A DNA stretch of 64,000 nucleotides from Candidatus Bathyarchaeia archaeon (GCA_049521795.1 JBEKOM010000001.1:288001-352000), one strand, 5' to 3'. Shown: positions 14,365-32,066, numbered from the stretch's first letter. Numbers and translations are program-made. The notes: generated from the letters alone by a model not told the origin.

Positions 14365-17300
14365 TCAAGCGAAGTCTGTCAGACTGATCTGCTTGGGCTT
14401 CCTACTATCAAACAGCGAACTGATCTCCTCTTTCACAAGCGAAATCCTCTGTGAATAGTACTTAGGCAAGTCATACTTGTCAATCAGATGCTGCGCTACT
14501 TCCAAGTACTTTTCAATGCCGCCCCGATAGACGGTCAACGTTAATTCCCCACCGCACGTTGGGCATTTGCCCCGAAGGGGCAGACGCCGGAAGCGCTTGC
14601 TACATGACTTGCACCTGAAACTCTGTGTTGAAAAAGCCCGCAGGTTCCCCGCGATGTCTCGCATGAAATGTTTCGTCAAGACCCTCAGGGCCACTTTGTC
14701 TGCATCTACAGCCACAATCTTCTCGGCCAATTCAAGTTGGCCCTCAAGCTTATCTGTCATCGTTTTGAGACTCTTATAAGAACTTTCACGGTTGCCCATG
14801 TTAACGTTAGACACGGGCGTCGTAAAGCTGAAGCCCTCAAACTGTGCCTCAGTACCAAGACGGTAACCCACAAGGTCTATCATTGAACTGACCTGTCTGG
14901 CTTCAACCTTTTCCCATGTCTTCTCAAAAAACTCAAGCGGATAGGAATCTGCAACGTCAAAGTCGTGGGCCTGCCTCTGCACCTCATTCGTGTTCACAAC
15001 TGGAATGAGCAGGAGCGGAGCATCCATTATCCCGCCGATCTGTGCAGGCAGGTACTCGCGTGAGAAGTTGAGCAACGTGTCGAGGGCAAGCATCAAAGTG
15101 TCTTCATCGCCGTCACAGTCTCTCCTCTTCGCCGAGTGCCAGATGGGGTGTGCATAGCAGAGGTTCAGGTTCGTAAAGCCTATAATACGTCCCAGGATTC
15201 CCACACAAGTGTGGGGAGCTAGGCCAACGATGAGATGCCCAACTAGGTCTTCGATTCGTCGGACATGATAGTATGGTGGAAGTCCATAAACCTTGGATAG
15301 AAGTTCGTCTAGAAAACTTGCGACACTCACGAAGTATTCTGCAGCTTTCACAGGAATAACGACGTCCTGAAGCTTGAGTTCACACACTTGACTTGCATCC
15401 GTCAATGGCGCGCCTTTTACGTCACAGGCGTAACCAAGCGCCCTAAGTATCTGAACTGAAACCTCAACTTCACAAGGCTTGAAGTGCGTCAAAGGGGCAT
15501 TGGTGGTGTCAAACCGTATCGTTCCATCCTTGTAAACTGAGAGGTCATGCTTTGACCGCAGAACGCCCTTTTCCAGTATTTCAGGCGTTTTGGTTTGATT
15601 TGTCAGCCCTTTCACTCCCTTCAAGATCCGTGGCATCGAAACGGACAAGTCACGGCATGCACTCTCAATCGTCTCTCTGAAATTGACGACCTGCTTCTGA
15701 TATCTTATCGCAGAGGTCTTGCAAGTAGGGCACGCATCTTGTTTCAGGCTTTTTCCGCATCGTGGGCAACTCTTCTCAGGAGCCGTCTCCGAACCGCATG
15801 CAGGGCATTTGACGCGAGAAGTGAAGGTCCCACATTCTGGGCACTTCCGTTTGATGATTTCCACAAAGGTCGGCCCATGCTTTGCTGCTTCAACGAGGTC
15901 TCTCTGCGAACCTCCTGCTAGACCGACTGGGAAAAGAACGTGCACAAGCGGCTTCATCTCGCGCCTTTTTGCCTTTTCAGGCCTGCCCATTCTTGCGCCT
16001 ACAAGCGTTGGGGCCTTATCCTTAACCTGCACGCCTGACAAAGAATTGACGGCTTCCAAGACGGTCTTTGCAGATGAAAAACCCAGGCCGCACGGAGCCC
16101 CGTAGCCTAAGCAAAAAGCGAAGGCACCCGCGTCTTCTCCCTCAATGAGCATCTTGCCGTCCAGGACCTTATGAGGAAGACATATCATTTCCAAGGCATG
16201 CTTAACCTCTGAATCCATTTCGCCAACAATCTTTCGAACGGCAGCACCTTCAGTTTGTACTTGAGACGCGAGAAGCCATGTTCTCACCTGTTCAAGTTGT
16301 TCGACTGAGGAAAGGCTTGACCAGAAGAACGTAAAAGCCGGGTGCAACGGAACACGCATTTCTGTTGACAGCGCAACAGCTTCAGAGAGGCTAGGCTTAC
16401 TCACAAAAAAGTCTGTCAAGAGACTCTTCAATCTTTCGGGTTGAATACCCACAGTTTCAGAGACCCTTTCAAGGTTGCCATCAAACTTTTCTGCAACCTT
16501 CTTTCGCAGATCTTCAGCCCACCACTCTTCGACGTAGCCCGAAGGCGTTAGAAACCTGCTGTTGTAGAGGAAGTCTCCAAAACTCACGAGGATGTCTCCG
16601 AGGAAGAGTATCTTCTCAATTCGGCCTCTTGCCTCGTTGAACTCGTCCACTGAGACTCGGATAACCGATCCGTCGTTCAGCCGCACTACTGGGCCCTCGA
16701 TGGTGTCGACGGGGACCACGATGCCGCCTTTTCCTGGGAGCTCCATTCGGAGTTGTGTTCCGCCTGCGAGGAAACCGTCTAAAACAAGCATTGTTGCCGG
16801 ATGGATGCCTACGGCTGCTAGGCCCGTGTTTCTTGCTCTGCCGTATCTCAGGCGGAAACCTCCCCGCCTTGAGGGAAAAGAGAACACGGGACGTCCGGCA
16901 ATGACGTCGTCCATGAAGCCTGAAGATTTCTTCTCGGATTTTCTGTGGATATCGCCGAGCCAGTCCCATCCCTGAAAACCGAGTTTTTCGATGATTGTGA
17001 GAACTTTTTGCGCTCGTCCGACGATGCCGTCGTTTACTACTCTGAGCGCTCCGCCCCTGACGCGGTTTGTTTCCACCCGCGGGAGGTTACGGAACGTGGA
17101 CACTTCAATCGGGTCAGACTCTGTGCCAGTCACCTCAACTGGCAACCACCCAAGGGCCTTTCTCAACTCTTCATCAGGAATGTGATACTGGAAGCGCATT
17201 CCTGAGGAGCGCTCGTAGATTCTGAGTTCTTCAATGAAGCGGGACATTTCTTCCTCCGTGGGCTTATAGCGGTCAAGTCCGAGGAGACGCCGTACGAAGT

Positions 17301-17772
17301 CACCCACGACCAGCGTTAACGCTTGGTCTGTTCCGCCTGCGGCCCTTATAGGCCCTGCAAAGTATATGGCAAGGTAACGTGTCCGGTCGCTATTTGCTTT
17401 GATCTTCACGTGCGCTACTCCCTGTATTGGCGCAGCCGTTAGACCTTCCGTGAAAATCGCTAGCGCCGTTCGAATCGCCTGTTCTGCAGCGGCTTCTGGT
17501 TCCATGTGTCCGAACTTGCCGTACACTATCTCTTCGGTCACCTTGAATGCCAGCTCTTCCCTCGAAAGCCTAGAGCTCAGTTCCCTTATGCTGTGAGCAA
17601 CTCCCTTCGGGCCCACGAGCCCCTCTACGAGGTCGGCCAGGTCCTTAGCAATCCTGCACTCAGGTTCAAGCGAAGGGTCAAGCCCCTTCTCCCTAGCCTT
17701 CTTGCTCAATTCGCAGAGTTGGGTCAGTCCACTTTCAAGGGCCTCAGTGTATTGCCGATAGGCTGCGCTCAT
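14365..17772 (-). CDS. polC: DNA polymerase D large subunit DP2
   Basis: YFAGPIRAAGGT, GGFRLRYGRARNTG, KDGTIRFD and catalytic RRDCDGDED; no intein; start probably ATG 17772 or a nearby TTG. Confidence 0.97.
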   Translation of the reverse strand: MSAAYRQYTEALESGLTQLCELSKKAREKGLDPSLEPECRIAKDLADLVEGLVGPKGVAHSIRELSSRLSREELAFKVTEEIVYGKFGHMEPEAAAEQAIRTALAIFTEGLTAAPIQGVAHVKIKANSDRTRYLAIYFAGPIRAAGGTDQALTLVVGDFVRRLLGLDRYKPTEEEMSRFIEELRIYERSSGMRFQYHIPDEELRKALGWLPVEVTGTESDPIEVSTFRNLPRVETNRVRGGALRVVNDGIVGRAQKVLTIIEKLGFQGWDWLGDIHRKSEKKSSGFMDDVIAGRPVFSFPSRRGGFRLRYGRARNTGLAAVGIHPATMLVLDGFLAGGTQLRMELPGKGGIVVPVDTIEGPVVRLNDGSVIRVSVDEFNEARGRIEKILFLGDILVSFGDFLYNSRFLTPSGYVEEWWAEDLRKKVAEKFDGNLERVSETVGIQPERLKSLLTDFFVSKPSLSEAVALSTEMRVPLHPAFTFFWSSLSSVEQLEQVRTWLLASQVQTEGAAVRKIVGEMDSEVKHALEMICLPHKVLDGKMLIEGEDAGAFAFCLGYGAPCGLGFSSAKTVLEAVNSLSGVQVKDKAPTLVGARMGRPEKAKRREMKPLVHVLFPVGLAGGSQRDLVEAAKHGPTFVEIIKRKCPECGTFTSRVKCPACGSETAPEKSCPRCGKSLKQDACPTCKTSAIRYQKQVVNFRETIESACRDLSVSMPRILKGVKGLTNQTKTPEILEKGVLRSKHDLSVYKDGTIRFDTTNAPLTHFKPCEVEVSVQILRALGYACDVKGAPLTDASQVCELKLQDVVIPVKAAEYFVSVASFLDELLSKVYGLPPYYHVRRIEDLVGHLIVGLAPHTCVGILGRIIGFTNLNLCYAHPIWHSAKRRDCDGDEDTLMLALDTLLNFSREYLPAQIGGIMDAPLLLIPVVNTNEVQRQAHDFDVADSYPLEFFEKTWEKVEARQVSSMIDLVGYRLGTEAQFEGFSFTTPVSNVNMGNRESSYKSLKTMTDKLEGQLELAEKIVAVDADKVALRVLTKHFMRDIAGNLRAFSTQSFRCKSCSKRFRRLPLRGKCPTCGGELTLTVYRGGIEKYLEVAQHLIDKYDLPKYYSQRISLVKEEISSLFDSRKPKQISLTDFA

Positions 17773-18242
17773 CTTTTCGCCCAAGTCTCCCACTCGCAAA
17801 GCCAGTGTGTATGAAACAAGCTTATTTCTGTTCTCTGACAGGAACAAGTCAAAAAGCCAAATCACTGAACCCTTCTATTCCGTGCGAATTCTACAAGAAC
17901 AAACTGCTGGTTCCCTCACTCCTGGCGCGGAGCTGGTTGTTCTTTGGTCGCTTCTCTCGCAGGTTCACCTCTTCTAATCACAGTTTCTGTGTGCGGCTTT
18001 TACATTGTAAGACGCGACCGTCTCAAATCTATGTTGAAAGTGGTGCCCCAACCAGTAACAAGGCTGCACGTGTCTGACTGAGAGTCGCTAGCTGGATCTG
18101 CTGCAGAAAAGACTGGGACGGCTCGTCTTGTTACCGAGGTTAAACACAAAACAGGGAGGCTCAGCCGAGGCTACACCAAAGGGTCATCTTCGCGGGAAAT
18201 TTTCATGGCGTTTAACGAGCTTTAAGAGCCGTCAGCGGCCTT

Positions 18243-18995
18243 TCACGTCCTGCCGCGTCTTATGCCTTCGATGATTTCCGAAACCTTGTGTTTGATGCCT
18301 GTCTCCTCAATGAGGTTACCCGTGACGATTATGTCTGCGCCCGCAGACGCCGCGGTTAACGCTTGCTCTCGGGATCTTATGCCACCCCCAACGACCAGGG
18401 GCACATCAACGTAATGCTTGACGCCACGGATCATCTCGGAAGGAACTGGATTCTTGGCACCTGATCCACCTTCCAAGTAGATGAAGCGCATGCCCAGGTA
18501 CTGGCCTGCTAACGCGTGGGCCGCCGCTAACTCAGGCTTGTCGTACGGGATCGGAATAGCCTTACCCACAATGCCCGCTGTGCCGCCCTCACCAACGATT
18601 ACGTAGCCGAGCGGGAGAGGTTCCAAACCGTACCTTTTTACAAGAGGAGCCCCCAAGATCTGAGCCCCCACCAGAAAGTACGGGTCCACCGAGTTCAGAA
18701 GCGACATGAACCATATCGCATCTGCGTAACGGCTTATGCCAGTAACATTGTTGGGAAAAAGGATTATTGGAATCTTCACAGCACGCTTGACCATCTTCAC
18801 AACATCATCCAAATGAGCCGCAGACACGAACGTCGAGCCACCGATCATAATCGCTGAAGTCTCGCATGCTCTCGCTTTGCCCGCGATCTTCGAAGCCTGT
18901 GGCGGAGTCACCCTTTCAGGGTCTATAAGCGTTATATGAATAGAACCCTCAGCCGCGATCTTTTCAAGAAGATACTTCTCAACGTTGCCTTCCAT
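18243..18995 (-). CDS. geranylgeranylglyceryl phosphate synthase
   Basis: HITLIDP, GGST, YLEGGSGA and VGGGIRS. Confidence 0.95.
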   Translation of the reverse strand: MEGNVEKYLLEKIAAEGSIHITLIDPERVTPPQASKIAGKARACETSAIMIGGSTFVSAAHLDDVVKMVKRAVKIPIILFPNNVTGISRYADAIWFMSLLNSVDPYFLVGAQILGAPLVKRYGLEPLPLGYVIVGEGGTAGIVGKAIPIPYDKPELAAAHALAGQYLGMRFIYLEGGSGAKNPVPSEMIRGVKHYVDVPLVVGGGIRSREQALTAASAGADIIVTGNLIEETGIKHKVSEIIEGIRRGRT

Positions 18996-19009: not shown

Positions 19010-19273
19010 TCAGGCACCCTTGATCACAGCAGAAGGCCTTCGAGACTGGCCATAAGTCTTATCGGTGAACATGCAGTAAACGTCAACCTCAGCCTGAGCA
19101 GGCTTAACTGGGAACCGCTCCCTGAGACCACAGCTACCGCATCCAACGACTGCGCATCCTTCCTCACGAAGGATCTCAACCCTCACCGTTTCCTTCCCAC
19201 ACCTGGGGCAAGGGAACAGTCTTGGAAGATGTTTCCTAGGGATGCGTACGACCTTTTTCCTTCTTCTACCCAT
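19010..19273 (-). CDS. elf1: transcription elongation factor Elf1
   Basis: MGRRRKK...FPCPRCG...CGSCG...VDVYCMFTD; start is ATG 19273, inside the longer track ORF. Confidence 0.9.
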   Translation of the reverse strand: MGRRRKKVVRIPRKHLPRLFPCPRCGKETVRVEILREEGCAVVGCGSCGLRERFPVKPAQAEVDVYCMFTDKTYGQSRRPSAVIKGA

Positions 19274-19372
19274 ACACGGGTCCTTCTCCGTTGGAAACGG
19301 CAGACACCCATATTTATGTTTGTCCTTAAATAGTTGCCTACAACCATACATCCATGGGAGCGCATCTCCTTG

Positions 19373-20212
19373 ATGTTGACGCCTGTAGTTCTTGATGTAA
19401 ATCTGCCAGAAACGGGGAACAGGATCCAACGGTTCATCAAGGACTATGTGGAGAACATGGGCGCGAAGGGCATAGTCGTGGGGGTATCCGGTGGAGTAGA
19501 CAGCTGCACCGTGGCTGCGATATCGGCTAGAGCCATCGGTGGGGACAAGGTCCTGGGACTGATGCTACCCGAAGAAGAAACGCGAAACTCCCAAGACATT
19601 GCAGATGGGAAACTCGTTGCTAAAGAATTCCATTTCAAAACAGAGAAAATCGACATCACACCTCCGTTGGAGGCGTTTTACAGTTCAATGCGTATTTACG
19701 ACCCTTCAGACAGACTGAGCAAAGGTAACATAAAGGCGCGCACACGCATGATCTACCTGTACTACTACGCTAACAGACTGAGCATGCTCGTCTGCGGAAG
19801 CTCAGACAAGTCAGAAACCATGATGGGCTACTTCACGAAATGGGGAGATGTTGCAGCGGACATTTCGCCGATAATGGATTTGTACAAGACCCAAGTCCGA
19901 AAACTAGCCCAGCACATAGGCATTCCAAGAGAAGTCGCCGAAAAGCCCTCTACCCCTGCCCTCTGGCCAAACCAGCTGGCCGAAGATGAACTGGGCATTA
20001 GGTATGAACAGCTCGACCTTATTCTGTACGGACTGGAGCACTTCATGAAGCCAAGCGAGATAGCCCATCAACTGCAGATCAAACAAAGTATAGTCGACAG
20101 AATAAAGAGCAGGTGGCTTTCAGCTGAACACAAGAGGCGCATGCTACTGACGGCAAAGCTTGAATACCGAACGATAGGTACTGACTTCAGACTTCCACGC
20201 GGCCCCAGCTAG
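19373..20212 (+). CDS. nadE: NAD+ synthetase (synthetase subunit)
   Basis: SGGVDS, GNIKARTRM, GYFTKWGD and EHKRR. Confidence 0.95.
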   Translation: MLTPVVLDVNLPETGNRIQRFIKDYVENMGAKGIVVGVSGGVDSCTVAAISARAIGGDKVLGLMLPEEETRNSQDIADGKLVAKEFHFKTEKIDITPPLEAFYSSMRIYDPSDRLSKGNIKARTRMIYLYYYANRLSMLVCGSSDKSETMMGYFTKWGDVAADISPIMDLYKTQVRKLAQHIGIPREVAEKPSTPALWPNQLAEDELGIRYEQLDLILYGLEHFMKPSEIAHQLQIKQSIVDRIKSRWLSAEHKRRMLLTAKLEYRTIGTDFRLPRGPS

Positions 20213-21068: not shown

Positions 21069-21143
21069 ATCCAAGAAAAAACTCAACCGCCAAGATCCGT
21101 TTACCAATTCGTCGAAAGCTGCGAAACAACCAAGTTGATAATG

Positions 21144-21307
21144 TCACAAACCATCGTCCTGGCACCTCATCAGAAATCACAACCACGTCACGCTCAACTG
21201 TGATCCTCTTGAAATGATGGCGTCTTTGCAAGGAAGAAATCAGGCAAACGGGTTGTTTGGAAATGGTGGCTAATCACACGTGACTCACGTGTGACGGCTG
21301 GCATCAC
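21144..21307. promoter_or_regulatory. TCAC/GTGA motif cluster 1 with 21-bp palindrome
   Basis: 9 TCAC/GTGA in 164 bp; TCACACGTGA-C-TCACGTGTGA at 21274-21294. Confidence 0.55.
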
Positions 21308-21874
21308 ATAATGAACAACATGTTTGAAGATCAGTATACCATCAAAAGAGATGCTGGCTGTTTTGCGGCCAATAGAAACGGGTCTATACACAACGAGCCC
21401 AAAATCGGGGAGCAATATTACAGTGGCCAACTTCGCGAAACGGCCAAAACAGGGACACTTTCGCCCTCGCACGTCGCAGTTCAGACCACACCTGAGTAAG
21501 TCACCGCCCCGATATGTTCCTCACGCTAGAACCTCCTAAAACTCAGCCATCCTTCCCTTGTTGCTCCCCATCGAGCCCCAAAACATCCCCAGAGAGCAGA
21601 CATCGGCCTTTCCGCAGGCGCGGGTAAACTCGCTTTCGCATTCCTCGGGCTAAAACAGAAAAACGGCACTGCACACAAAGCTTCAGTCGTTTGCGCCTCC
21701 AGAATTGGTCAGAACCAGAAACCGCTCGCTCTCTCTAATTATCTGCCAATTTCCTGGCATATGCTTCTCCTGTCCCCCGAACTCAAATCGCGCCGCATTG
21801 GAATGCGATACTTTTAAGAGCTGGGTCCGTATACAAAACCGTATCCATTCAAACCATCTCAGGGGCGATGATAT

Positions 21875-22354
21875 TTGAAGCTGAGAGACAGCGTCCAATC
21901 GATGCTAGTAAGCTCAATTAACGACCCTATTGCCAAAATCATGGCCGACAACAGCCATTTAACAAAAACTCAGCTTGAAACGCTCCTCATAGACATATTG
22001 TCCGACAATATCTCAGACAAAGCGCTGAAGTACGACGAAAAGGCCCGATTAAGGCTAACCAAGGCCAAAATCAGTCGTGGAGCGTTCAACCGGACTCTAA
22101 AGCAGGCCAAGGAAAATGTCACAAAATCAGTCTACACTGTAATACTGCTAGGGTACTTGGGACTCTTCGAAACCACAACTCTTGACCCATATCTTGAGGT
22201 CGCAAACCAACTGCACACGTATTTGGATGCATACAAGAACGCGGTCAGCGAAGGTACAAGCATCAGTGAGCGCCTGAAAATCATAGGTTTGCTCCGCCAA
22301 CAGCTCGAAACAAGCCTAAAAGAACTCTCCAGTCGTCCGACCAGGCCAATGTGA
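21875..22354 (+). CDS. origin-associated HTH protein, hypothetical
   Basis: LTKTQLETL...ISRGAFNRTLKQAKENV resembles a sigma-4/HTH-10-like helix-turn-helix. Confidence 0.7.
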   Translation: MKLRDSVQSMLVSSINDPIAKIMADNSHLTKTQLETLLIDILSDNISDKALKYDEKARLRLTKAKISRGAFNRTLKQAKENVTKSVYTVILLGYLGLFETTTLDPYLEVANQLHTYLDAYKNAVSEGTSISERLKIIGLLRQQLETSLKELSSRPTRPM

Positions 22355-22642
22355 CATCACAAATCACGCCCCAAAATACGGTACTTGTACCCTGCAACCA
22401 CAGCTGTTAGCAGAAGCCCAATTCACATCGCAAATCGTGATAAGAACCCAAGGCAGCCATCTTTCCCGGAACATGTTAATGAGGCGCTAGATGCATCGGT
22501 TATACTTAAAAGTGTGATGTGTGACATCATGCCTGCTCGTCACCATGGTACGCACCATAAGTCTTAAATGCTGCATGGGCGAGATGTGATGTGTGATGCA
22601 ACGTGTTCGAGTCACGTATAATCACGTTTGAATCACAGGTGA
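22351..22642. promoter_or_regulatory. TCAC/GTGA heptad-like motif cluster 2
   Basis: 14 TCAC/GTGA in 292 bp, with three tandem pairs at exactly 7-bp spacing (22357/22364, 22514/22521, 22586/22593). Confidence 0.65.
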
Positions 22643-22649
22643 ATTTCTA

Positions 22650-23363
22650 TTGGATTATCTATTGTTTATCCTCGTGAGTTGTCTTCTTGCAGCGACCGCC
22701 GTCTCGGCGCTGGAATACTACCGTAGGTTGCGTCAGGCCAAAGGGGAATACGAAGAAGCACGAGGAGCGGTCGAGGACATTGTTTTGAGTTTCAACAGGC
22801 AGTTCAGGCGCGAAGACGAGAAACTAGAGGCGGTTGCTTACAAAGTTGAGGCTGTGGATTCGAAAAGCGACAGAGTAGTCAACAAGATGGGAGATATGGA
22901 AAAGAGGTTGAACACGGCGGAGGCAAAGGTCGGTGCCGACTCTGAAGGCAGTGAGAGATTGGCAGTTCGACTGGCTGAGGTTGAAAACAAAACCCGTGAT
23001 ATGATAGCATCACAAGAAGCAGTCACAGCAAGAATTGTGGACTTGGAACAGCGAGCTAGGCAATTCTCAGCCTTCCCTGAAGCTAGCCTTGAAGCGGCGA
23101 TACCGATAAGGAGAGACAAGGCGTTGGCACAGTTGACTGCTACAGAGGTTGCAGTGTTGGAGCTCCTGGCATCAGAGGGGTCAAAGACCGCGCCACAGAT
23201 AAAGGAAAAAGTCAGACTTAGCAGAGAACACACGGCAAGGTTGATGAAGAAGCTCTACGAAGAGGGGTACTTGGACAGGGAAACCATCAAGATCCCGTTT
23301 AAGTACAGCGCCAAGAAGGAGATAGAGAAACTTCTCGGGAAACCGCAGGATCAAGCTGCCTAA
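22650..23363 (+). CDS. membrane-anchored coiled-coil protein with C-terminal winged HTH
   Basis: N-terminal TM (YLLFILVSCLLAATAVSAL), a long heptad-rich helix, then LTATEVAVLELL...LSREHTARLMKKLYEEGYLDR wHTH. Confidence 0.85.
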   Translation: MDYLLFILVSCLLAATAVSALEYYRRLRQAKGEYEEARGAVEDIVLSFNRQFRREDEKLEAVAYKVEAVDSKSDRVVNKMGDMEKRLNTAEAKVGADSEGSERLAVRLAEVENKTRDMIASQEAVTARIVDLEQRARQFSAFPEASLEAAIPIRRDKALAQLTATEVAVLELLASEGSKTAPQIKEKVRLSREHTARLMKKLYEEGYLDRETIKIPFKYSAKKEIEKLLGKPQDQAA

Positions 23364-23403
23364 TCTGCCTGCCTCGAATGAAAGCTCGCGGCTGCGAGAA
23401 GGC

Positions 23404-23856
23404 TCACTGTTTCACTGTAATGTCCGTTACTTTCGCAGCGACTTGGGCCACACTTGTCGCCACTTTGTACCTCAAGCTGTTGGATGGCCCGGCTCTTAAT
23501 AGGAGCTTCTTTCCTGCCATCCTCGCGAGGTACGTTGCTACAGTACTCAGGCCTATTGGCTCTCTAAACTCCTGTTCGAAAATAGTTTGCACCTCTCTGG
23601 AGGAGAACCAAACCAAAGTGAAGTGTTTTTGAACTGTTGCTCTGACCTTGTCATACTTTGACGGTTCTCTAGCTAAAGTGGAATTTGAACCTGGATTTCC
23701 ACCATCCCCGGGGACCCCACCAAGGAGTTCCACCAGGTCGAGCAACCGCACCGCCTTATCGCGTGTGACCTGCCCTTCAAAGCTTATTGAGTAACGATTG
23801 CCCTCGCTGTCGAAAAGTTCGACGCGCATTTTTCTGGCTGGCATTGGCATGTACAC
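23404..23856 (-). CDS. origin-adjacent winged-helix protein
   Basis: N-terminal beta-beta-alpha domain, Gly-rich linker, then FSSREVQ...IGLSTVATYLARMAGKKLL wHTH; divergent from cdc6 across oriC. Confidence 0.8.
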   Translation of the reverse strand: MYMPMPARKMRVELFDSEGNRYSISFEGQVTRDKAVRLLDLVELLGGVPGDGGNPGSNSTLAREPSKYDKVRATVQKHFTLVWFSSREVQTIFEQEFREPIGLSTVATYLARMAGKKLLLRAGPSNSLRYKVATSVAQVAAKVTDITVKQ

Positions 23857-24043
23857 CTGGCGGCTGCGTTCACAATTTCACAGTTCACAAGCTATAGGTG
23901 TTACGGTGAACACTGTGCTGCAAAAGGGAAACAAAACAGCCTCTAAATCAATAAAGCAGCTATATTTCCAGCCTTATTGAGATTGCGCGGGTAACAGGTT
24001 TTCAGAAAGTCAAAATGAGAATAGACTCGGTACGAAACGCGTT

Positions 24044-24620
24044 TTCCAGTGGAAGAGCAGGGGTGAGCTATTCACAGAAAAGAAGCATAGATGACTCAAT
24101 TGGAGGAAATAGGCGGATGTGGAAACGACATTGGTAGGTAAACTTCACAAGGATTTCACGGAAAGTGAACGAAAAAATGGACGAGTGCGCGCCGCTACGG
24201 GTGGAAGGTTTCAGTGGAGTGGAGTTTAGAGGTGTTAAATAAGCAAAAGGTTCCAATTGGCAGTCTACACCGCAAGCAGTATGTAGAAAAGAAGTCACAC
24301 CCCTTCATTTCCATTGGAAAGGGTGTAAGTCTAGTATTGTCTGTAAGCAAGTTTGAAATGTTTTTTAGTAAATGTCTAAAATTCTAGCTGAAAGTAAATA
24401 TAACGTCATTTACCAATTACATAGAGGAGTACAAGTTTTTCTAAGTATAATTAGCATTTCTTCAACTCAAAGAGTGAACACTTCCATCAGAAGCTGGGGG
24501 GTGTGCCTGTTCATGTTGGAGGGTATTTAGTGTTAAAGGTGTGCTTCTTCTTTAGAATTCTTGTGCTTAGTATTTAAATTTCTGTATGGTAGGGCTTATG
24601 TTTTCCACAGGAAGAACGCT
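24044..24620. other. chromosomal replication origin (oriC)
   Basis: ORB-like boxes TTCCAGTGGAAGAGCAGGGGT (24044-24064 +), TTCCAATGGAAATGAAGGGGT (24299-24319 -) and TTCCATCAGAAGCTGGGGGGT (24482-24502 +); AT-rich stretch ~24330-24470; directly upstream of cdc6. Confidence 0.88.
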
Positions 24621-24650
24621 TGTTACTACTGGACTCTGTGAGTTGATGGA

Positions 24651-25901
24651 ATGAGTAATGCTGATATTCTTGATGAACTCTTCGAGAACTTCGCGAGCAA
24701 CACCACAGTTTTTAGGGATCGAGAGGTACTGCGACATGATTATCTTCCAGACAGGCTGCCTCATCGTGAAGGGCAGATCAGGCAGTTGGGGGAAATTGTT
24801 GCTCCCTTGCTTAAAGGTGCAAGAAGCTCCAACATTTTTATCTATGGCAATACAGGAACCGGGAAAACCGCTGTGGTCAAGTATGTACTAACTCGTCTTG
24901 AGTTTAAGGCTAAAGAATTCAACGCACCTGTTAAGATATGCTACGTCAACTGTAGGCTAGCCGGATCCGAGTACAGGGTCTTCGCAAGTATGTGCCAGAG
25001 TTTAGGTGTTCAGGTTCCATTCACAGGGTTATCCGTCGGTGAAGTCTATGATAGGTTCACTGCAGGTTTGGACCTTTCGGGCACGATTTTCTTGGTGGTC
25101 TTGGATGAAGCCGATGCGTTGACAAAGATGCGCGGGGACACTTTTCTGTATGAGTTGACTAGAATGAACGAGGTTTTGAGGCACAGCAAAATAGCCCTTG
25201 TTGGGATATCTAACGATCTGCGCTTCAAAGAGTTTCTGGATCCTCGTGTCCTAAGCTCACTGAGCGAGGAGGAGATTGTTTTCAGGCCCTACGATGCAGG
25301 TGAGTTGAGAAACATACTCGCTGAACGGGCCCAGGCAGCCTTCACTGAGAAATCATTGTCCGATGCCGCGCTTGGCCTTTGTGCTGCTCTTGCTGCAGCA
25401 GAGCATGGGGATGCGCGTCGAGCTTTGGACCTTTTGCGTGTTGCCGGCGAGGTAGCTGAACGAAAAGGGTTAACCGTGGTGTCTGAAGAGCATGTTCGCG
25501 AGGCTGAGAAGCATATTGAGCACAACCGTGTTGTTGAAGCTTTGAGCAACCTGCCGTTGCACTCGAAGCTTGTGACATTGAGCATCTATCACTTGGGCAA
25601 AAGAGACGCTCGGGGCGCCATTACGGGTGAGATCTCTGAGGTCTACGAGGAGCTGAGCGGGGAGTTGGGAGTTGCGCCGCTGACTCAGCGGCGTCTGAGC
25701 ACGTTGATAAATGAACTGGACGCGATGGGACTGTTGAACGCTAGGGTCGTTAGCATGGGAAGGTACGGGCGAACGAAGAAGATACGGCTTGAGATCGGGC
25801 GCAGCCTTATTCGAGACGTGTTTGCTGAGGATAGTAGGCTTAGCCGCCTAGTTAATTACGAAGTGCAGTGCATTTCGAAGCGCGCTGATGGCAGAAACTA
25901 A
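24651..25901 (+). CDS. cdc6: Orc1/Cdc6 replication initiator
   Basis: LPHRE, Walker A GNTGTGKT, LDEAD, GDARRALDLLR and C-terminal SMGRYGRTK wing. Confidence 0.97.
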   Translation: MSNADILDELFENFASNTTVFRDREVLRHDYLPDRLPHREGQIRQLGEIVAPLLKGARSSNIFIYGNTGTGKTAVVKYVLTRLEFKAKEFNAPVKICYVNCRLAGSEYRVFASMCQSLGVQVPFTGLSVGEVYDRFTAGLDLSGTIFLVVLDEADALTKMRGDTFLYELTRMNEVLRHSKIALVGISNDLRFKEFLDPRVLSSLSEEEIVFRPYDAGELRNILAERAQAAFTEKSLSDAALGLCAALAAAEHGDARRALDLLRVAGEVAERKGLTVVSEEHVREAEKHIEHNRVVEALSNLPLHSKLVTLSIYHLGKRDARGAITGEISEVYEELSGELGVAPLTQRRLSTLINELDAMGLLNARVVSMGRYGRTKKIRLEIGRSLIRDVFAEDSRLSRLVNYEVQCISKRADGRN

Positions 25902-25954
25902 GGCTTAATGCCCGCCTCATGCTTCCCGGTGCTAGCGGCCATCTGCCTATGTTT

Positions 25955-27520
25955 TCAGTCGAACGGAATGACGGTGACCTCTAGGGTCTGAAGATTAACC
26001 ACTGGAACCATCGCGGGTGTCGGAACAAAGCCGTTCCTGCGCATGTAATCGGTCTGCCTTTGCCAGCAGCCTGAGTTTACGATCAACACTCCACGATAGT
26101 TACCGTATTCTAGTGCGTGCACGTGGCCAGCATGGAAGATGTCTGGGACGTGGTCGATAACGAGGAAGTCTTTGCTCTCCGGCGACAGAGGTGTCTTGCC
26201 GCCATAAAGTGGTGCTAGGTGTCGGGTCTGAAGCAGCAGTTGCATTGCTTTTTCGGGGTGGCTGTGGCTCATGCCTGGGACGGTGGAGATTATGTCGTCG
26301 AGGCTGCGGCCGTGGAACATGAGCACTTCTACTCCGTGGAGGCTTAGTGTGCACGGGCTGCCTAGAGATTGGACCCTTCTCGATTCTTGAAGCGTCTCTA
26401 GGAAGGAGTGGGAGATTGCTGGCTGCGGTAGCGCTTTTCGAGGAGCATCGTGGTTTCCTGGCGTGATTATGACTTCCACGTAGTCGGGGATTTGCTCTAT
26501 GTACTTTGAGGCAAACTTGTACTGTTTGTTCACGTCTCTTATTGCGAGTTCTTTTGCTTGGTTGGGGTAGACGCCGATTCCGTCGACGATGTCCCCTGCG
26601 ATTAGCACGTATTTGACGTGGCCTGCTATGTCCTTCAATCTGGCGTCGCCGTATTTTCCGTTCAGCCAGAGCATGAAGCGGTTTAACGCTTCTTTCGTGA
26701 ACTGTCTGCTGCCAACGTGCATGTCTGATGTGAGCACTGCGTAGACTGGCGCTGTTGCTTTGTGCTGAATTCTCTGGGCAACGTCTGGCAGGATTATGTC
26801 TTCGGCGACGAGCAGGCTGCTTCTGGTCTTGACGACGGTGAGGCAGATGACTTGGTCGAGCAGGAGCATTCGCGCCTTTTTCTGCAGGTCTGGGTGAGCG
26901 TTCTGTGTTACGAGAACGATGGCGCTTGCCTTGAGGTCCTCAACGGTTAGCACCGTTTTCTGTTTGGACTCTCTCTTCTCTGTGACCATGGCTATTATCT
27001 TGAGTCGCGTGTTTGATGGGGCCTTCACTGCGTCCATGACCGAGGCTGCGCTCTTGACGTCCATCCTTTGTCTCAGCAGCTTCTCTAGCTGTTTGAACCT
27101 ATCTTGAAAGTAGCCCAGGTAATCTTCGATCGTCCCGGCTGAGCTTATTTTTGAGCCTGGGTCTTCCATCACTTTCATTTCGGCTTCAACACCTTTCGAG
27201 TATGGGCGGAAGGGCACTTTGGCTTCAGTTAACTGCGGAACCTGAACCTCCATAGTTTGTGGGAGATGTTCTTCTGATGGTTGGGCGACGTTTCCCTCTG
27301 CTCCTTCCGGCGGTTTGAGTAACTCTTCCAAGAAGCACCGCTCTATGAAGAAGGGTTTCTCCTCAAGGTTTTCGATCTGCTGGATTGCTTTGGCCATGAT
27401 TTTCGCTGGGTCCTCGGTTGTGGCTACTAAGCTTAGGAATTCGAAGGCTTCTTTGTTCAGCTGGTAACCTGCAGCGATAGTGAGTTCTACGGCTCTCTGG
27501 AGTTTTTCCGCCTCGCTCAT
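25955..27520 (-). CDS. polB: DNA polymerase D small subunit DP1
   Basis: SDMHVGS, AGDIVDGIGVYPNQ, PGNHDA, HGRS and HAGHVH phosphoesterase motifs. Confidence 0.96.
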   Translation of the reverse strand: MSEAEKLQRAVELTIAAGYQLNKEAFEFLSLVATTEDPAKIMAKAIQQIENLEEKPFFIERCFLEELLKPPEGAEGNVAQPSEEHLPQTMEVQVPQLTEAKVPFRPYSKGVEAEMKVMEDPGSKISSAGTIEDYLGYFQDRFKQLEKLLRQRMDVKSAASVMDAVKAPSNTRLKIIAMVTEKRESKQKTVLTVEDLKASAIVLVTQNAHPDLQKKARMLLLDQVICLTVVKTRSSLLVAEDIILPDVAQRIQHKATAPVYAVLTSDMHVGSRQFTKEALNRFMLWLNGKYGDARLKDIAGHVKYVLIAGDIVDGIGVYPNQAKELAIRDVNKQYKFASKYIEQIPDYVEVIITPGNHDAPRKALPQPAISHSFLETLQESRRVQSLGSPCTLSLHGVEVLMFHGRSLDDIISTVPGMSHSHPEKAMQLLLQTRHLAPLYGGKTPLSPESKDFLVIDHVPDIFHAGHVHALEYGNYRGVLIVNSGCWQRQTDYMRRNGFVPTPAMVPVVNLQTLEVTVIPFD

Positions 27521-31935: not shown

Positions 31936-32066
31936 GCCGGGGTGGCGGAGCGGTTATCGCGCTGGCCTCGAGATCATTCGCGAAGAAAAAGGGCCCAGAT
32001 GGATGATGACAAGTGAGCCAGTGGGCCTTCGGGCTCGCAGGGGTTCGAGTCCCTTCCCCGGCGCCA
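31936..32066 (+). tRNA. tRNA-Ser(CGA) with 43-nt intron at 37/38 (31973-32015)
   Basis: Acceptor GCCGGGG/CCCCGGC-G-CCA, anticodon arm CTGGC-CTCGAG|A-GCCAG, long variable arm GGGCCTTCGGGCTC, GTTCGAG T-loop; BHB-like intron junction. Confidence 0.93.

Follow-up and report, generated by a model that had tools for sequence, protein, structure and literature searches.

Three DNA-binding protein genes conserved beside the replication origin of Bathyarchaeia, one of them encoding a candidate membrane anchor

How archaeal replication origins are positioned and segregated, and which factors besides Orc1/Cdc6 act on them, is an open question; for factors of this kind, UBP of Sulfolobales is so far the one recent example. 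The question is raised again by a 64,000-nucleotide stretch of DNA (the window) from a peat archaeon, Candidatus Bathyarchaeia archaeon (GCA_049521795.1, JBEKOM010000001.1:288001-352000; 2.44-Mb genome assembly). Its replication island contains three genes for helix-turn-helix (HTH) proteins, here called P1, P2 and P3, directly left of the origin (oriC) and the initiator gene cdc6. An earlier note on this sequence had drawn attention to the three genes, with P3 divergent from cdc6, and to the repeat clusters interleaved with them, and had suggested an uncharacterised system for chromosome anchoring and partition or for control of initiation. Open reading frame (ORF) calls and domain searches reproduced the arrangement (Table 1), and the repeat clusters proved to be real. 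We conclude that the trio is a real, deeply conserved origin-associated module. That it tethers the origin to the membrane is plausible and testable, but not established.

The three genes were followed through 151 Bathyarchaeia genomes, including the window's own, and through a sample of 251 genomes of the phylum. Of the 151 genomes in the class sample, 120 contained P1, 101 contained P2 and 90 contained P3, each mostly as a single copy, and an orthologue of the window's cdc6 (E ≤ 1.2e-117) was present in 103. P3 occurred only together with the cdc6 orthologue (90/90 genomes), and 95 of the 101 genomes with P2 also had P1. For the linkage count, P2 was entered at one place per genome, leaving out the second fragments of split matches, P3 at 91 places (one weak row was dropped), P1 at all 121 places and Cdc6 with orthologue-level rows only, and the gap was taken as the distance between two matches. 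Pairs on the same contig were within 5 kb of each other in 91/92 cases for P1 and P2, 59/59 for P2 and P3 (median gap 69 bp), 80/81 for P3 and cdc6 (median gap 751 bp, corresponding to the origin spacer) and 61/62 for P2 and cdc6. The pairs split between contigs (3, 4, 9 and 11, respectively) came mostly from fragmented assemblies. The gene order derived from 30 class loci was DP2-PcrB-Elf1-...-P1-P2-P3-oriC-cdc6-(Endo_dU)-DP1, where DP2 and DP1 are the large and small subunits of the DNA polymerase PolD. Lineage-specific insertions were seen in the P1/P2 gap (HypF or an HTH_3-CBS gene) and in the P2/P3 gap (NurA-HerA).

The same genes recur outside the class. In the phylum sample, the P3 profile matched in 166 of 251 genomes and the P2 profile in 186 (E ≤ 1e-5), many of the latter matches covering the C-terminal half only. 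One family, f32, had both P2 and P3 matches in all of its 34 genomes. We identify f32 as Nitrosopumilaceae, because one of its members is Candidatus Nitrosotalea devanaterra and because the closest relatives of the P3 of that genome are Nitrosopumilaceae. The order DP1-cdc6-spacer-P3-P2-P1-PcrB-DP2 is seen in all three f32 loci in which the two ends of the island are present; in a fourth, the contig ends inside the spacer. The linkage to oriC and cdc6, which the earlier note had named as the first thing to check, therefore holds in both groups, and its mention of similar proteins near cdc6 in Nitrososphaeria was correct. The recognition helices of P2 and P3 are the same in Bathyarchaeia and Nitrosopumilaceae. 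Other families of the phylum retain a partial arrangement, and in five loci (L075, L079, L081, L083 and L085) P3 stands away from any cdc6 in the 12 kb examined.

Two of the inserted elements were seen repeatedly. A divergent pair of NurA-like and HerA-like genes (Pfam NurA, E 1.4e-6; DUF87/HerA, E 9e-14) lies between P2 and P3 in many relatives (L031, L035 and L036; G114, G032, G142 and others, judged by spacing), where it increases the distance from P2 to cdc6 from about 1.3 to about 3.8 kb; the window does not have the pair. A fourth DNA-binding gene (HTH_3 plus CBS, about 190–210 aa) is often found beside P2 or P3 (L042, L050, L053 and L057) and is absent from the island in the window. Outside the class, this gene is almost always found beside P2 or P3 (L074, L076–L078, L080 and L085–L087).

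The spacer between P3 and cdc6 (23857–24650) is 794 bp long, with a GC content down to 0.35. By its sequence features it is a canonical archaeal origin: it carries origin recognition boxes (ORBs), one of them with a G-string, an AT-rich region predicted to unwind, and a mini-ORB. When eight origin spacers were compared (the window and seven relatives), the ORBs of the window aligned with those of the relatives. Where cdc6 has been displaced, either by another gene in between (L048, L060) or to a position 4 kb off (L055), the ORB and the stretch of lowest GC content remain beside P3. A second, distant Orc1/Cdc6 paralogue (G000:C6:91924-93048; 29% identity, E 1.9e-39) is encoded in the same genome outside the window and could mark a second origin.

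P2 has the most unusual architecture of the three proteins. Residues 3–21 are hydrophobic (Kyte–Doolittle 2.35), with no lysine or arginine before them and four after, as expected of an N-terminal transmembrane (TM) segment. Residues 25–150 show a continuous 3.5-residue hydrophobic periodicity that was reached in none of 2000 shuffled sequences, consistent with a heptad coiled-coil stalk of about 125 residues. The stalk is followed by a winged HTH (wHTH) domain of the MarR/TrmB type at residues 162–222, completing the combination of membrane segment, coiled coil and wHTH described in the earlier note. The head matches MarR (PF01047) over residues 162–211 (E 7.8e-7; 29.3 bits against a cut-off of 24.6; profile positions 1–50 of 59) and TrmB and HTH_27 weakly, and there are sub-threshold matches to the wHTH of Lrs14, Sta1 and Csa3 in NCBIfam. 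In 24 homologues, the residues R, E, H and R of the recognition helix (S/T-R-E-H-T-A/S-R-L-M-K-K-L) are invariant. Only 15 residues follow the wing, and dimerisation helices of the MarR type are missing.

Of 36 P2 homologues, 27 have a TM segment that is followed on its C-terminal side by positive charge, among them all four of the Nitrosopumilaceae proteins examined. By the positive-inside rule, the wHTH is predicted to be cytoplasmic in all 27, and the extracellular placement that the earlier note had feared was not seen. The external part of these proteins comprises 0 to 39 residues, mostly 0 to 20 (two in the window), and thus leaves little room for a sensor domain. Relatives of P2 have only automatically assigned names in the databases (“hypothetical”, “winged helix DNA-binding protein” and “chromosome segregation ATPase”), the last of these presumably prompted by the coiled coil.

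P3 was predicted (pLDDT 81) to consist of a β-β-α domain (residues 8–45), a low-confidence linker and a single wHTH (residues 67–132). The longest ORF starts with GTG at 23856 (MYMPMPARK), but the true start is probably the ATG at 23844, since all relatives begin with MPxRK. The family comprises 472 clusters at 50% identity, and nearly all members are 90 to 220 aa long. The structural matches of the wHTH are generic: the Fur DNA-binding domain gave Z 10.9, RosR, AspA and MecI were found by Foldseek at E 3.6e-3 or weaker, and the winged-helix domains of ORC/Cdc6 appeared only among these generic matches (8s0e_G, Z 9.4; 7jgr_G, Z 8.2). A search against PDB sequences gave a weak wHTH match (2k4b_A, E 0.026). 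P3 fell below the cut-off of Penicillinase_R (PF03965; BlaI/MecI/CopY), with 16.5 against 22.6 bits, and nine of 27 family members matched it weakly (best E 7e-5). The protein ends after the wing, lacking the C-terminal dimerisation domain of BlaI-type proteins and carrying the N-terminal β-β-α domain instead. We make no claim of a new fold for this domain, because the search with the whole model was filled by wHTH matches. A complex of P3 and Cdc6 scored 0.00 in two prediction runs made without controls, and this result is not used as evidence either way.

The P1 model (pLDDT 85) shows an HTH at about residues 26–95 and a C-terminal helical hairpin at 99–159 (helices 104–125 and 130–153). With VIA-align, residues 26–88 were superposed on the Tfx-family protein EnfR (8hno_A; Z 6.8, root-mean-square deviation 1.4 Å over 52 residues, 31% identity), and other superpositions of the HTH were on 7vim_A (Z 7.3), sigma-28 (1rp3_A, Z 6.8) and the HTH domains of sigma region 4 and LuxR proteins. 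The weight of the Tfx match rests on the 31% identity, because the Z values fall in the common range of the tool. As modelled, P1 is an HTH protein like Tfx and region 4 of sigma70, without the C-terminal domain of Tfx. Among 27 P1 members, no Pfam family was found at E ≤ 0.01 apart from two unrelated single matches. A Foldseek search of the P1 model against the PDB gave nothing (best E 2.2), profile and single-sequence searches of the PDB gave only noise, and neither P1 nor P3 was assigned to a family by NCBIfam. We rejected an identification of P1 and P3 as GINS subunits, which combine a helical and a small β domain: the P1 model is all-helical with an HTH, P3 has a wHTH, and there was no Pfam match to GINS or Sld5.

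Each of the three genes is accompanied by its own set of candidate sites. At P1, this is a palindrome, GTATACAAAAnnGTATCC (GTATAC-N6-GTATCC), which in 26 of 27 loci precedes the aligned P1 start by 27 to 53 nt. The site is unique in the genome: it scores 27.9 with the position weight matrix, compared to 16.7 for the next best site and 19.3 for the weakest true site. In Nitrosopumilaceae loci, which were gathered with a single Nitrosotalea P3 as query, an ATAC-N5-7-GTAT palindrome is present at the 5′ end of P1 in 56/56 cases, with a background of 12 in 324 kb.

The second and third sets are the hexamers ATCACA and TTMACA, the latter being TT(C/A)ACA. The window contains 29 copies of ATCACA, equal to the chance mean of 29, and nine of them are within clusters A and B, which bracket P1. 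Across the 2.44-Mb genome, these two clusters are the only places where a 300-bp interval holds at least four ATCACA copies, and the origin spacer is the only place with at least four copies of TTCACA. A tandem form, TGTGATNTGTGA, occurs at two sites in the genome, both of them in cluster B upstream of P2, and cluster B is conserved upstream of P2 in relatives. Compared to first-order Markov simulations, TTCACA is strongly enriched in 21 origin spacers (81 copies, 9.0 ± 2.9 expected), as is ATCACA in 20 spacers upstream of P2 (71 copies, 7.7 ± 2.9 expected). (One of the latter spacers, that of L031, includes P1, which is present and was dropped by the ORF filter.) Neither hexamer is enriched in the spacer of the other (5 copies against 5.6 and 5 against 6.5 expected). 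The same division is seen in the 56 Nitrosopumilaceae loci: TTAACA is most frequent in the 300 bp directly upstream of P3 (about ten per locus), and ATCACA has its maximum at the P2/P1 spacer. Adjacent copies of TTMACA are mostly in direct orientation and spaced by 8 to 11 bp, and those of ATCACA are preferentially spaced by 7 bp and by 10 to 11 bp. Thus, the candidate motifs are confined to the trio locus, and the spread over unrelated metabolic promoters that would have spoken against an origin-linked role was not seen.

The motifs co-vary with the proteins. In 31 mapped class loci, with a cluster defined as four or more copies in 300 bp, 18 of the 24 P2-containing loci had ATCACA clusters (4 to 9 copies), compared to none of the seven that lack P2, five of which have P1. 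TTMACA clusters were seen at 22 of the 27 P3-containing loci and at none of the four that lack P3. Two of the P3-less loci (L040 and L052) have no TTMACA array although the cdc6 orthologue and an ORB with G-string are retained there, which makes it unlikely that the repeats are part of the Cdc6 site. At the phylum level, ATCACA clusters (three or more) were found in 9/12 loci with P2 and in 0/7 without it, and TTMACA clusters (four or more) in all ten loci with P3 beside cdc6, as well as in L071, where the contig ends inside the spacer. These patterns suggest that P2 pairs with ATCACA and P3, in the context of the origin, with TTMACA, as far as can be judged from a few contrasts among related genomes.

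We infer from these data which protein binds which motif, and, one step further, an effect on initiation and a tether to the membrane. In the scheme that we propose, P1, P2 and P3 would form an origin-resident set of site-specific DNA-binding proteins, each acting on private sites inside the replication island. P3 would bind the TT(C/A)ACA repeats that are interleaved with the ORBs and flank both ORB1 and its own promoter, and may modulate the action of Cdc6 and MCM there. P2 would be inserted with its N-terminus out and its C-terminus in, dimeric through the stalk, with its cytoplasmic wHTH heads on the ATCACA arrays that bracket P1. DNA at a distance of 1.8 to 3.1 kb from the unwinding region would thereby be kept at the membrane, and P2 may also repress its own gene, as centromere-binding proteins do. 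P1 would be a Tfx-like dimeric repressor of its own promoter, acting through the palindrome and setting the level of the module. With somewhat less than even confidence, we therefore read P3 as a non-initiator component of oriC, P2 as the protein that ties an origin-proximal array to the membrane, and P1 as a local regulator. A structural rather than a purely regulatory role is favoured by the genome-wide uniqueness of the motifs, by the size of the arrays, by the lasting adjacency of the convergent genes P2 and P3, and by the anchor of P2, which comes without an external domain. Of the system first suggested for this locus, an origin-linked DNA-binding module is supported by linkage, predicted topology and range of targets, whereas tethering or partition is carried forward here as a proposal.

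Several observations weigh against this scheme. At the threshold used, no cluster was found in six of the 24 P2 loci and five of the 27 P3 loci. Outside the class, eight of nine P3 loci that have no cdc6 in the stretch examined are without a TTMACA array, and the assignment of this motif to P3 therefore rests on few contrasts, which are related by descent. The TM segment is missing from nine of the 36 P2 homologues (in L040 possibly through a miscalled start codon), so the anchor is dispensable in some lineages, and the topology was judged by hydropathy and flanking charge. In one family of 27 genomes, f18, P3 is absent (0/27) and the cdc6 orthologue is found in a single genome, and P2 and P1 are present in 24 and 21 genomes, respectively. 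These genomes (e.g., L045, L046 and G123) have only a distant Cdc6 paralogue (E 1e-28 to 1e-47, one genome excepted), and P1-HypF-P2 lies beside DP1. In G123, which is assembled as a single contig, P2 (at 54.6 kb) is about 290 kb from the only Cdc6 match (at 344.5 kb), and no ORB with G-string was seen in the two f18 loci examined. Either the origin has moved in this family, or an orphan origin remains. Finally, all three motif sets overlap or adjoin the promoters of their own genes, just as plain autoregulation would produce.

This last point leads to the strongest rival, which we regard as possible but rather unlikely: the trio could be ordinary autoregulated transcription factors that tune cdc6, the PolD subunits and themselves, for instance over the cell cycle, without any structural role at the origin, and the anchor of P2 would serve only to limit its diffusion or level. 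Each motif set is located at or just downstream of the TATA-like element of its own gene: the palindrome precedes the P1 start by 28 to 47 nt, ATCACA sites lie between a TCTTAAAT element and the P2 start, and three TTCACA copies are no more than 30 bp from the P3 start. All three folds are standard for transcription factors, and the P1 HTH has its nearest solved relative in EnfR, a dimeric repressor that acts on a pseudo-palindrome (PMC10570040). However, no comparable site or cluster for any of the motif sets exists elsewhere in the genome, and regulators acting on nothing but themselves would be pointless. The TTCACA pairs reach into oriC by 290 bp, where it is ORB1 and not the promoter of cdc6 that they flank, and arrays of 5 to 11 sites are larger than a normal operator. 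Nor does co-transcription explain the adjacency of P2 and P3 in 59 of 59 pairs, since the two genes are convergent.

At the other extreme, the locus might represent an archaeal version of the replicon of Jacob, Brenner and Cuzin. The TM coiled-coil protein P2 would clamp a genome-unique, centromere-like array beside oriC to the membrane, P3 would be a sequence-specific subunit of the origin, and the system would predate the split between Bathyarchaeia and Nitrososphaeria. If so, the firing and segregation of origins would be organised from a membrane-attached nucleoprotein complex, with no need for a ParA motor. We consider this larger claim unlikely as it stands.

It is improbable that P2, alone or together with P3, provides the centromere binding for a partition system whose ATPase is encoded elsewhere, with the ATCACA arrays as the centromere. 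The position of the short-repeat arrays ahead of the gene for the binder itself, their uniqueness in the genome and their preferred spacings of 7 bp and 10 to 11 bp would suit such a system; in plasmid pSM19035, arrays of the heptad WATCACW serve the omega protein as both operator and centromere. ParA/MinD-type genes are present elsewhere in the genome, and the wHTH of P3 resembles that of AspA, the centromere-binding protein of pNOB8 (5k5o_C, E 9.6e-3). However, AspA is just one among many generic matches of this wHTH. In the window, there was no match to PF01656 or PF13614, in agreement with the earlier note, and no gene of the ParA/SegA type was found among the conserved neighbours of the 30 class and 19 phylum-level loci mapped.

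Even less probable is a role for P2 as a regulator that is sequestered at the membrane until it is cleaved or released, coupling the state of the envelope or growth to the expression of replication genes or to origin firing. The predicted architecture of P2, in which one N-terminal TM helix is combined with a DNA-binding head in the cytoplasm, would allow this, and the soluble variants (9/36) imply that the head can work without the anchor. However, the external part is too short for a sensor domain, and no conserved gene for a protease or partner was seen in the neighbourhood; a cleavage site was not searched for. Least probable of all is that the adjacency is a frozen accident of a slowly rearranging island and that the real targets of three functionally unrelated proteins lie elsewhere, for although the island includes unrelated housekeeping genes (PcrB, Elf1, NadE and CN hydrolase) and unrelated genes (HypF and NurA-HerA) have been inserted among the three, the gene order survives these insertions and is shared by two classes, and the conserved, locus-specific motifs co-vary with the proteins.

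The features of the island are listed in Table 1.

Table 1. Coordinates of the trio, its candidate sites and the surrounding features, counted from the first nucleotide of the window
Feature	Position	Strand	Length	Location or basis
PolD large subunit DP2	14365-17865	-		Left end of island; Pfam PolC_DP2_cat 2.7e-127, PolC_DP2_central 3.2e-122, PolC_DP2_N 1.1e-102
PcrB (GGGP synthase family)	18243-18995	-		Pfam PcrB 4.5e-59
Elf1-like zinc ribbon	19010-19429	-		
ATCACA cluster A, 4 hexamers	21176-21308			About 570 bp upstream of P1
Perfect 10-bp inverted repeat TCACACGTGA-C-TCACGTGTGA	21274-21294			Inside ATCACA cluster A
Candidate P1 operator, palindrome CGTATACAAAACCGTATCCA	21828-21847			28 to 47 nt upstream of P1 start
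P1	21875-22354	+	159 aa	ORF call
ATCACA cluster B, 5 hexamers plus ATCACG/GTCACG variants	22356-22637			P1 stop to P2 start
P2	22650-23363	+	237 aa	ORF call
P3	23404-23856	-	150 aa	Longest ORF
TTCACA array	23869-24149 (hexamer starts 23869, 23877, 23884, 24071, 24144)			P3-proximal half of oriC, flanks ORB1
ORB1 core TTCCAGTGGAA	24044			oriC spacer
ORB2 core TTCCATTGGAA, inverted	24309			oriC spacer
Predicted AT-rich unwinding region	About 24340-24470			oriC spacer
ORB3 with G-string	About 24480-24510			oriC spacer alignment
Mini-ORB core TTCCACAGGAA	24603			Beside cdc6
Orc1/Cdc6 initiator (cdc6)	24651-25901	+		Pfam Cdc6_C 6.7e-26, Cdc6_lid 3.2e-24, AAA_22
PolD small subunit DP1	25955-27520	-		Right end of island; Pfam DNA_pol_E_B 1.2e-20, Metallophos 2.1e-10

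DP2 and DP1 are recurrent neighbours of the island in relatives, and PcrB adjoins P1 in the Nitrosopumilaceae loci. In the window, genes for NadE and a CN hydrolase lie between the Elf1-like gene and a gene-free spacer of 806 bp (21069–21874) that separates the CN hydrolase gene from P1 and holds ATCACA cluster A and the 10-bp inverted repeat. Apart from the region of the P1 palindrome, this spacer has no conserved ORF, no Rfam match and no nucleotide or tblastx similarity to the spacers of relatives. Those spacers are likewise long (up to 1272 bp), and several of them contain ATCACA clusters. At the other end of the island, the gap between cdc6 and DP1 is 53 bp (25902–25954), without the Endo_dU gene (PF01949) that is seen there in many relatives (L037–L040, L047, L050 and others). 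An Rfam scan of the window gave only a tRNA at 31936–32063 (128 nt, 44.3 bits) and found nothing in the spacers. ARAGORN found no tRNA in the window, and the Rfam match fits an intron-containing archaeal tRNA.

The locus thus provides three candidates for origin factors, conserved across the phylum sample and supplied with predicted sites; one of the three proteins is membrane-anchored by prediction. Close homologues are found in cultivable ammonia oxidisers (Nitrosotalea, Nitrosopumilus and Nitrosotenuis), which makes the idea directly testable. The TT(C/A)ACA pairs, the ATCACA arrays and the GTATAC-N6-GTATCC palindrome may also serve as practical markers of oriC in assemblies of Bathyarchaeia and Nitrosopumilaceae.

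A literature search found no paper on the trio or on non-ORB repeats in the origins of Bathyarchaeia or thaumarchaea; the study of the N. maritimus origin by Pelve et al. (2013), cited in PMC4010727, may describe origin repeats. The proteins can be compared individually to known systems. P1 is most like EnfR (TON_1525; PDB 8hno), a Tfx protein that regulates a metabolic gene cluster and has an acidic C-terminal α+β domain termed the “note-head” (PMC10570040). The HTH and long stem helix of P1 superpose on the “flag and stem” of EnfR, and both have a palindromic promoter target, that of P1 being a candidate. Where EnfR has the note-head, the P1 model has a helical hairpin.

P2 shares with the MarR, TrmB and Lrs14 regulators only a wHTH core of 50 residues. 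MarR proteins are soluble, about 150 aa long, and dimerise through an interface formed by terminal helices, whereas in P2 the head is preceded by a TM helix and by a heptad stalk some 125 residues long. The centromere-binding proteins of type Ib and type II partition systems, and SegB and AspA, resemble P2 in having repeat arrays upstream of the binder's gene, which may act both as operator and as handle. Those systems include a neighbouring Walker-type ATPase gene, as in ParABS and SegAB; no ParA/SegA gene adjoins P2 and P3, whose folds either differ from those of the known binders or match them generically.

P3 invites comparison with two origin-associated proteins. The Cdt1-like winged-helix initiator protein WhiP has two tandem winged-helix domains and is encoded beside an origin; the model of P3 shows a single wHTH, and its gene lies beside the origin. 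The role proposed for P3 is that of UBP at oriC1 of Sulfolobales, a non-initiator protein that recognises ucm, a short non-ORB motif located between ORBs (Dhanaraju et al. 2025, PMC12141716). UBP is a β-rich, saddle-shaped protein of 111 aa with DNA-binding β-hairpins that also binds hundreds of other genomic sites (PMC12141716). The β-β-α plus wHTH architecture of P3 sets it apart from UBP as so described, and no homology is implied. The P3 gene lies at the origin, the only place in the genome where the motif assigned to P3 is clustered, whereas the gene for UBP is not described as origin-adjacent.

For P2, the closest functional parallels are bacterial. In Bacillus subtilis, RacA and DivIVA anchor the origin, and RacA reaches the membrane via its partner protein. 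RicO of Staphylococcus aureus is an origin-to-membrane anchor that has a C-terminal amphipathic helix (bioRxiv 10.64898/2026.03.06.710092). No sequence relationship was found between P2 and either RicO or RacA, and P2 differs from them in being archaeal, in its predicted N-terminal TM helix and long coiled coil, and in its two clusters of candidate sites within about 3 kb of the unwinding region. What the proposed P2 would share with RicO and RacA is a site-specific DNA-binding domain acting on repeated origin-proximal sites and an element that targets the membrane. One defining feature of this class of anchors, a membrane element and a cytoplasmic DNA-binding domain in one protein or complex, is predicted for P2.

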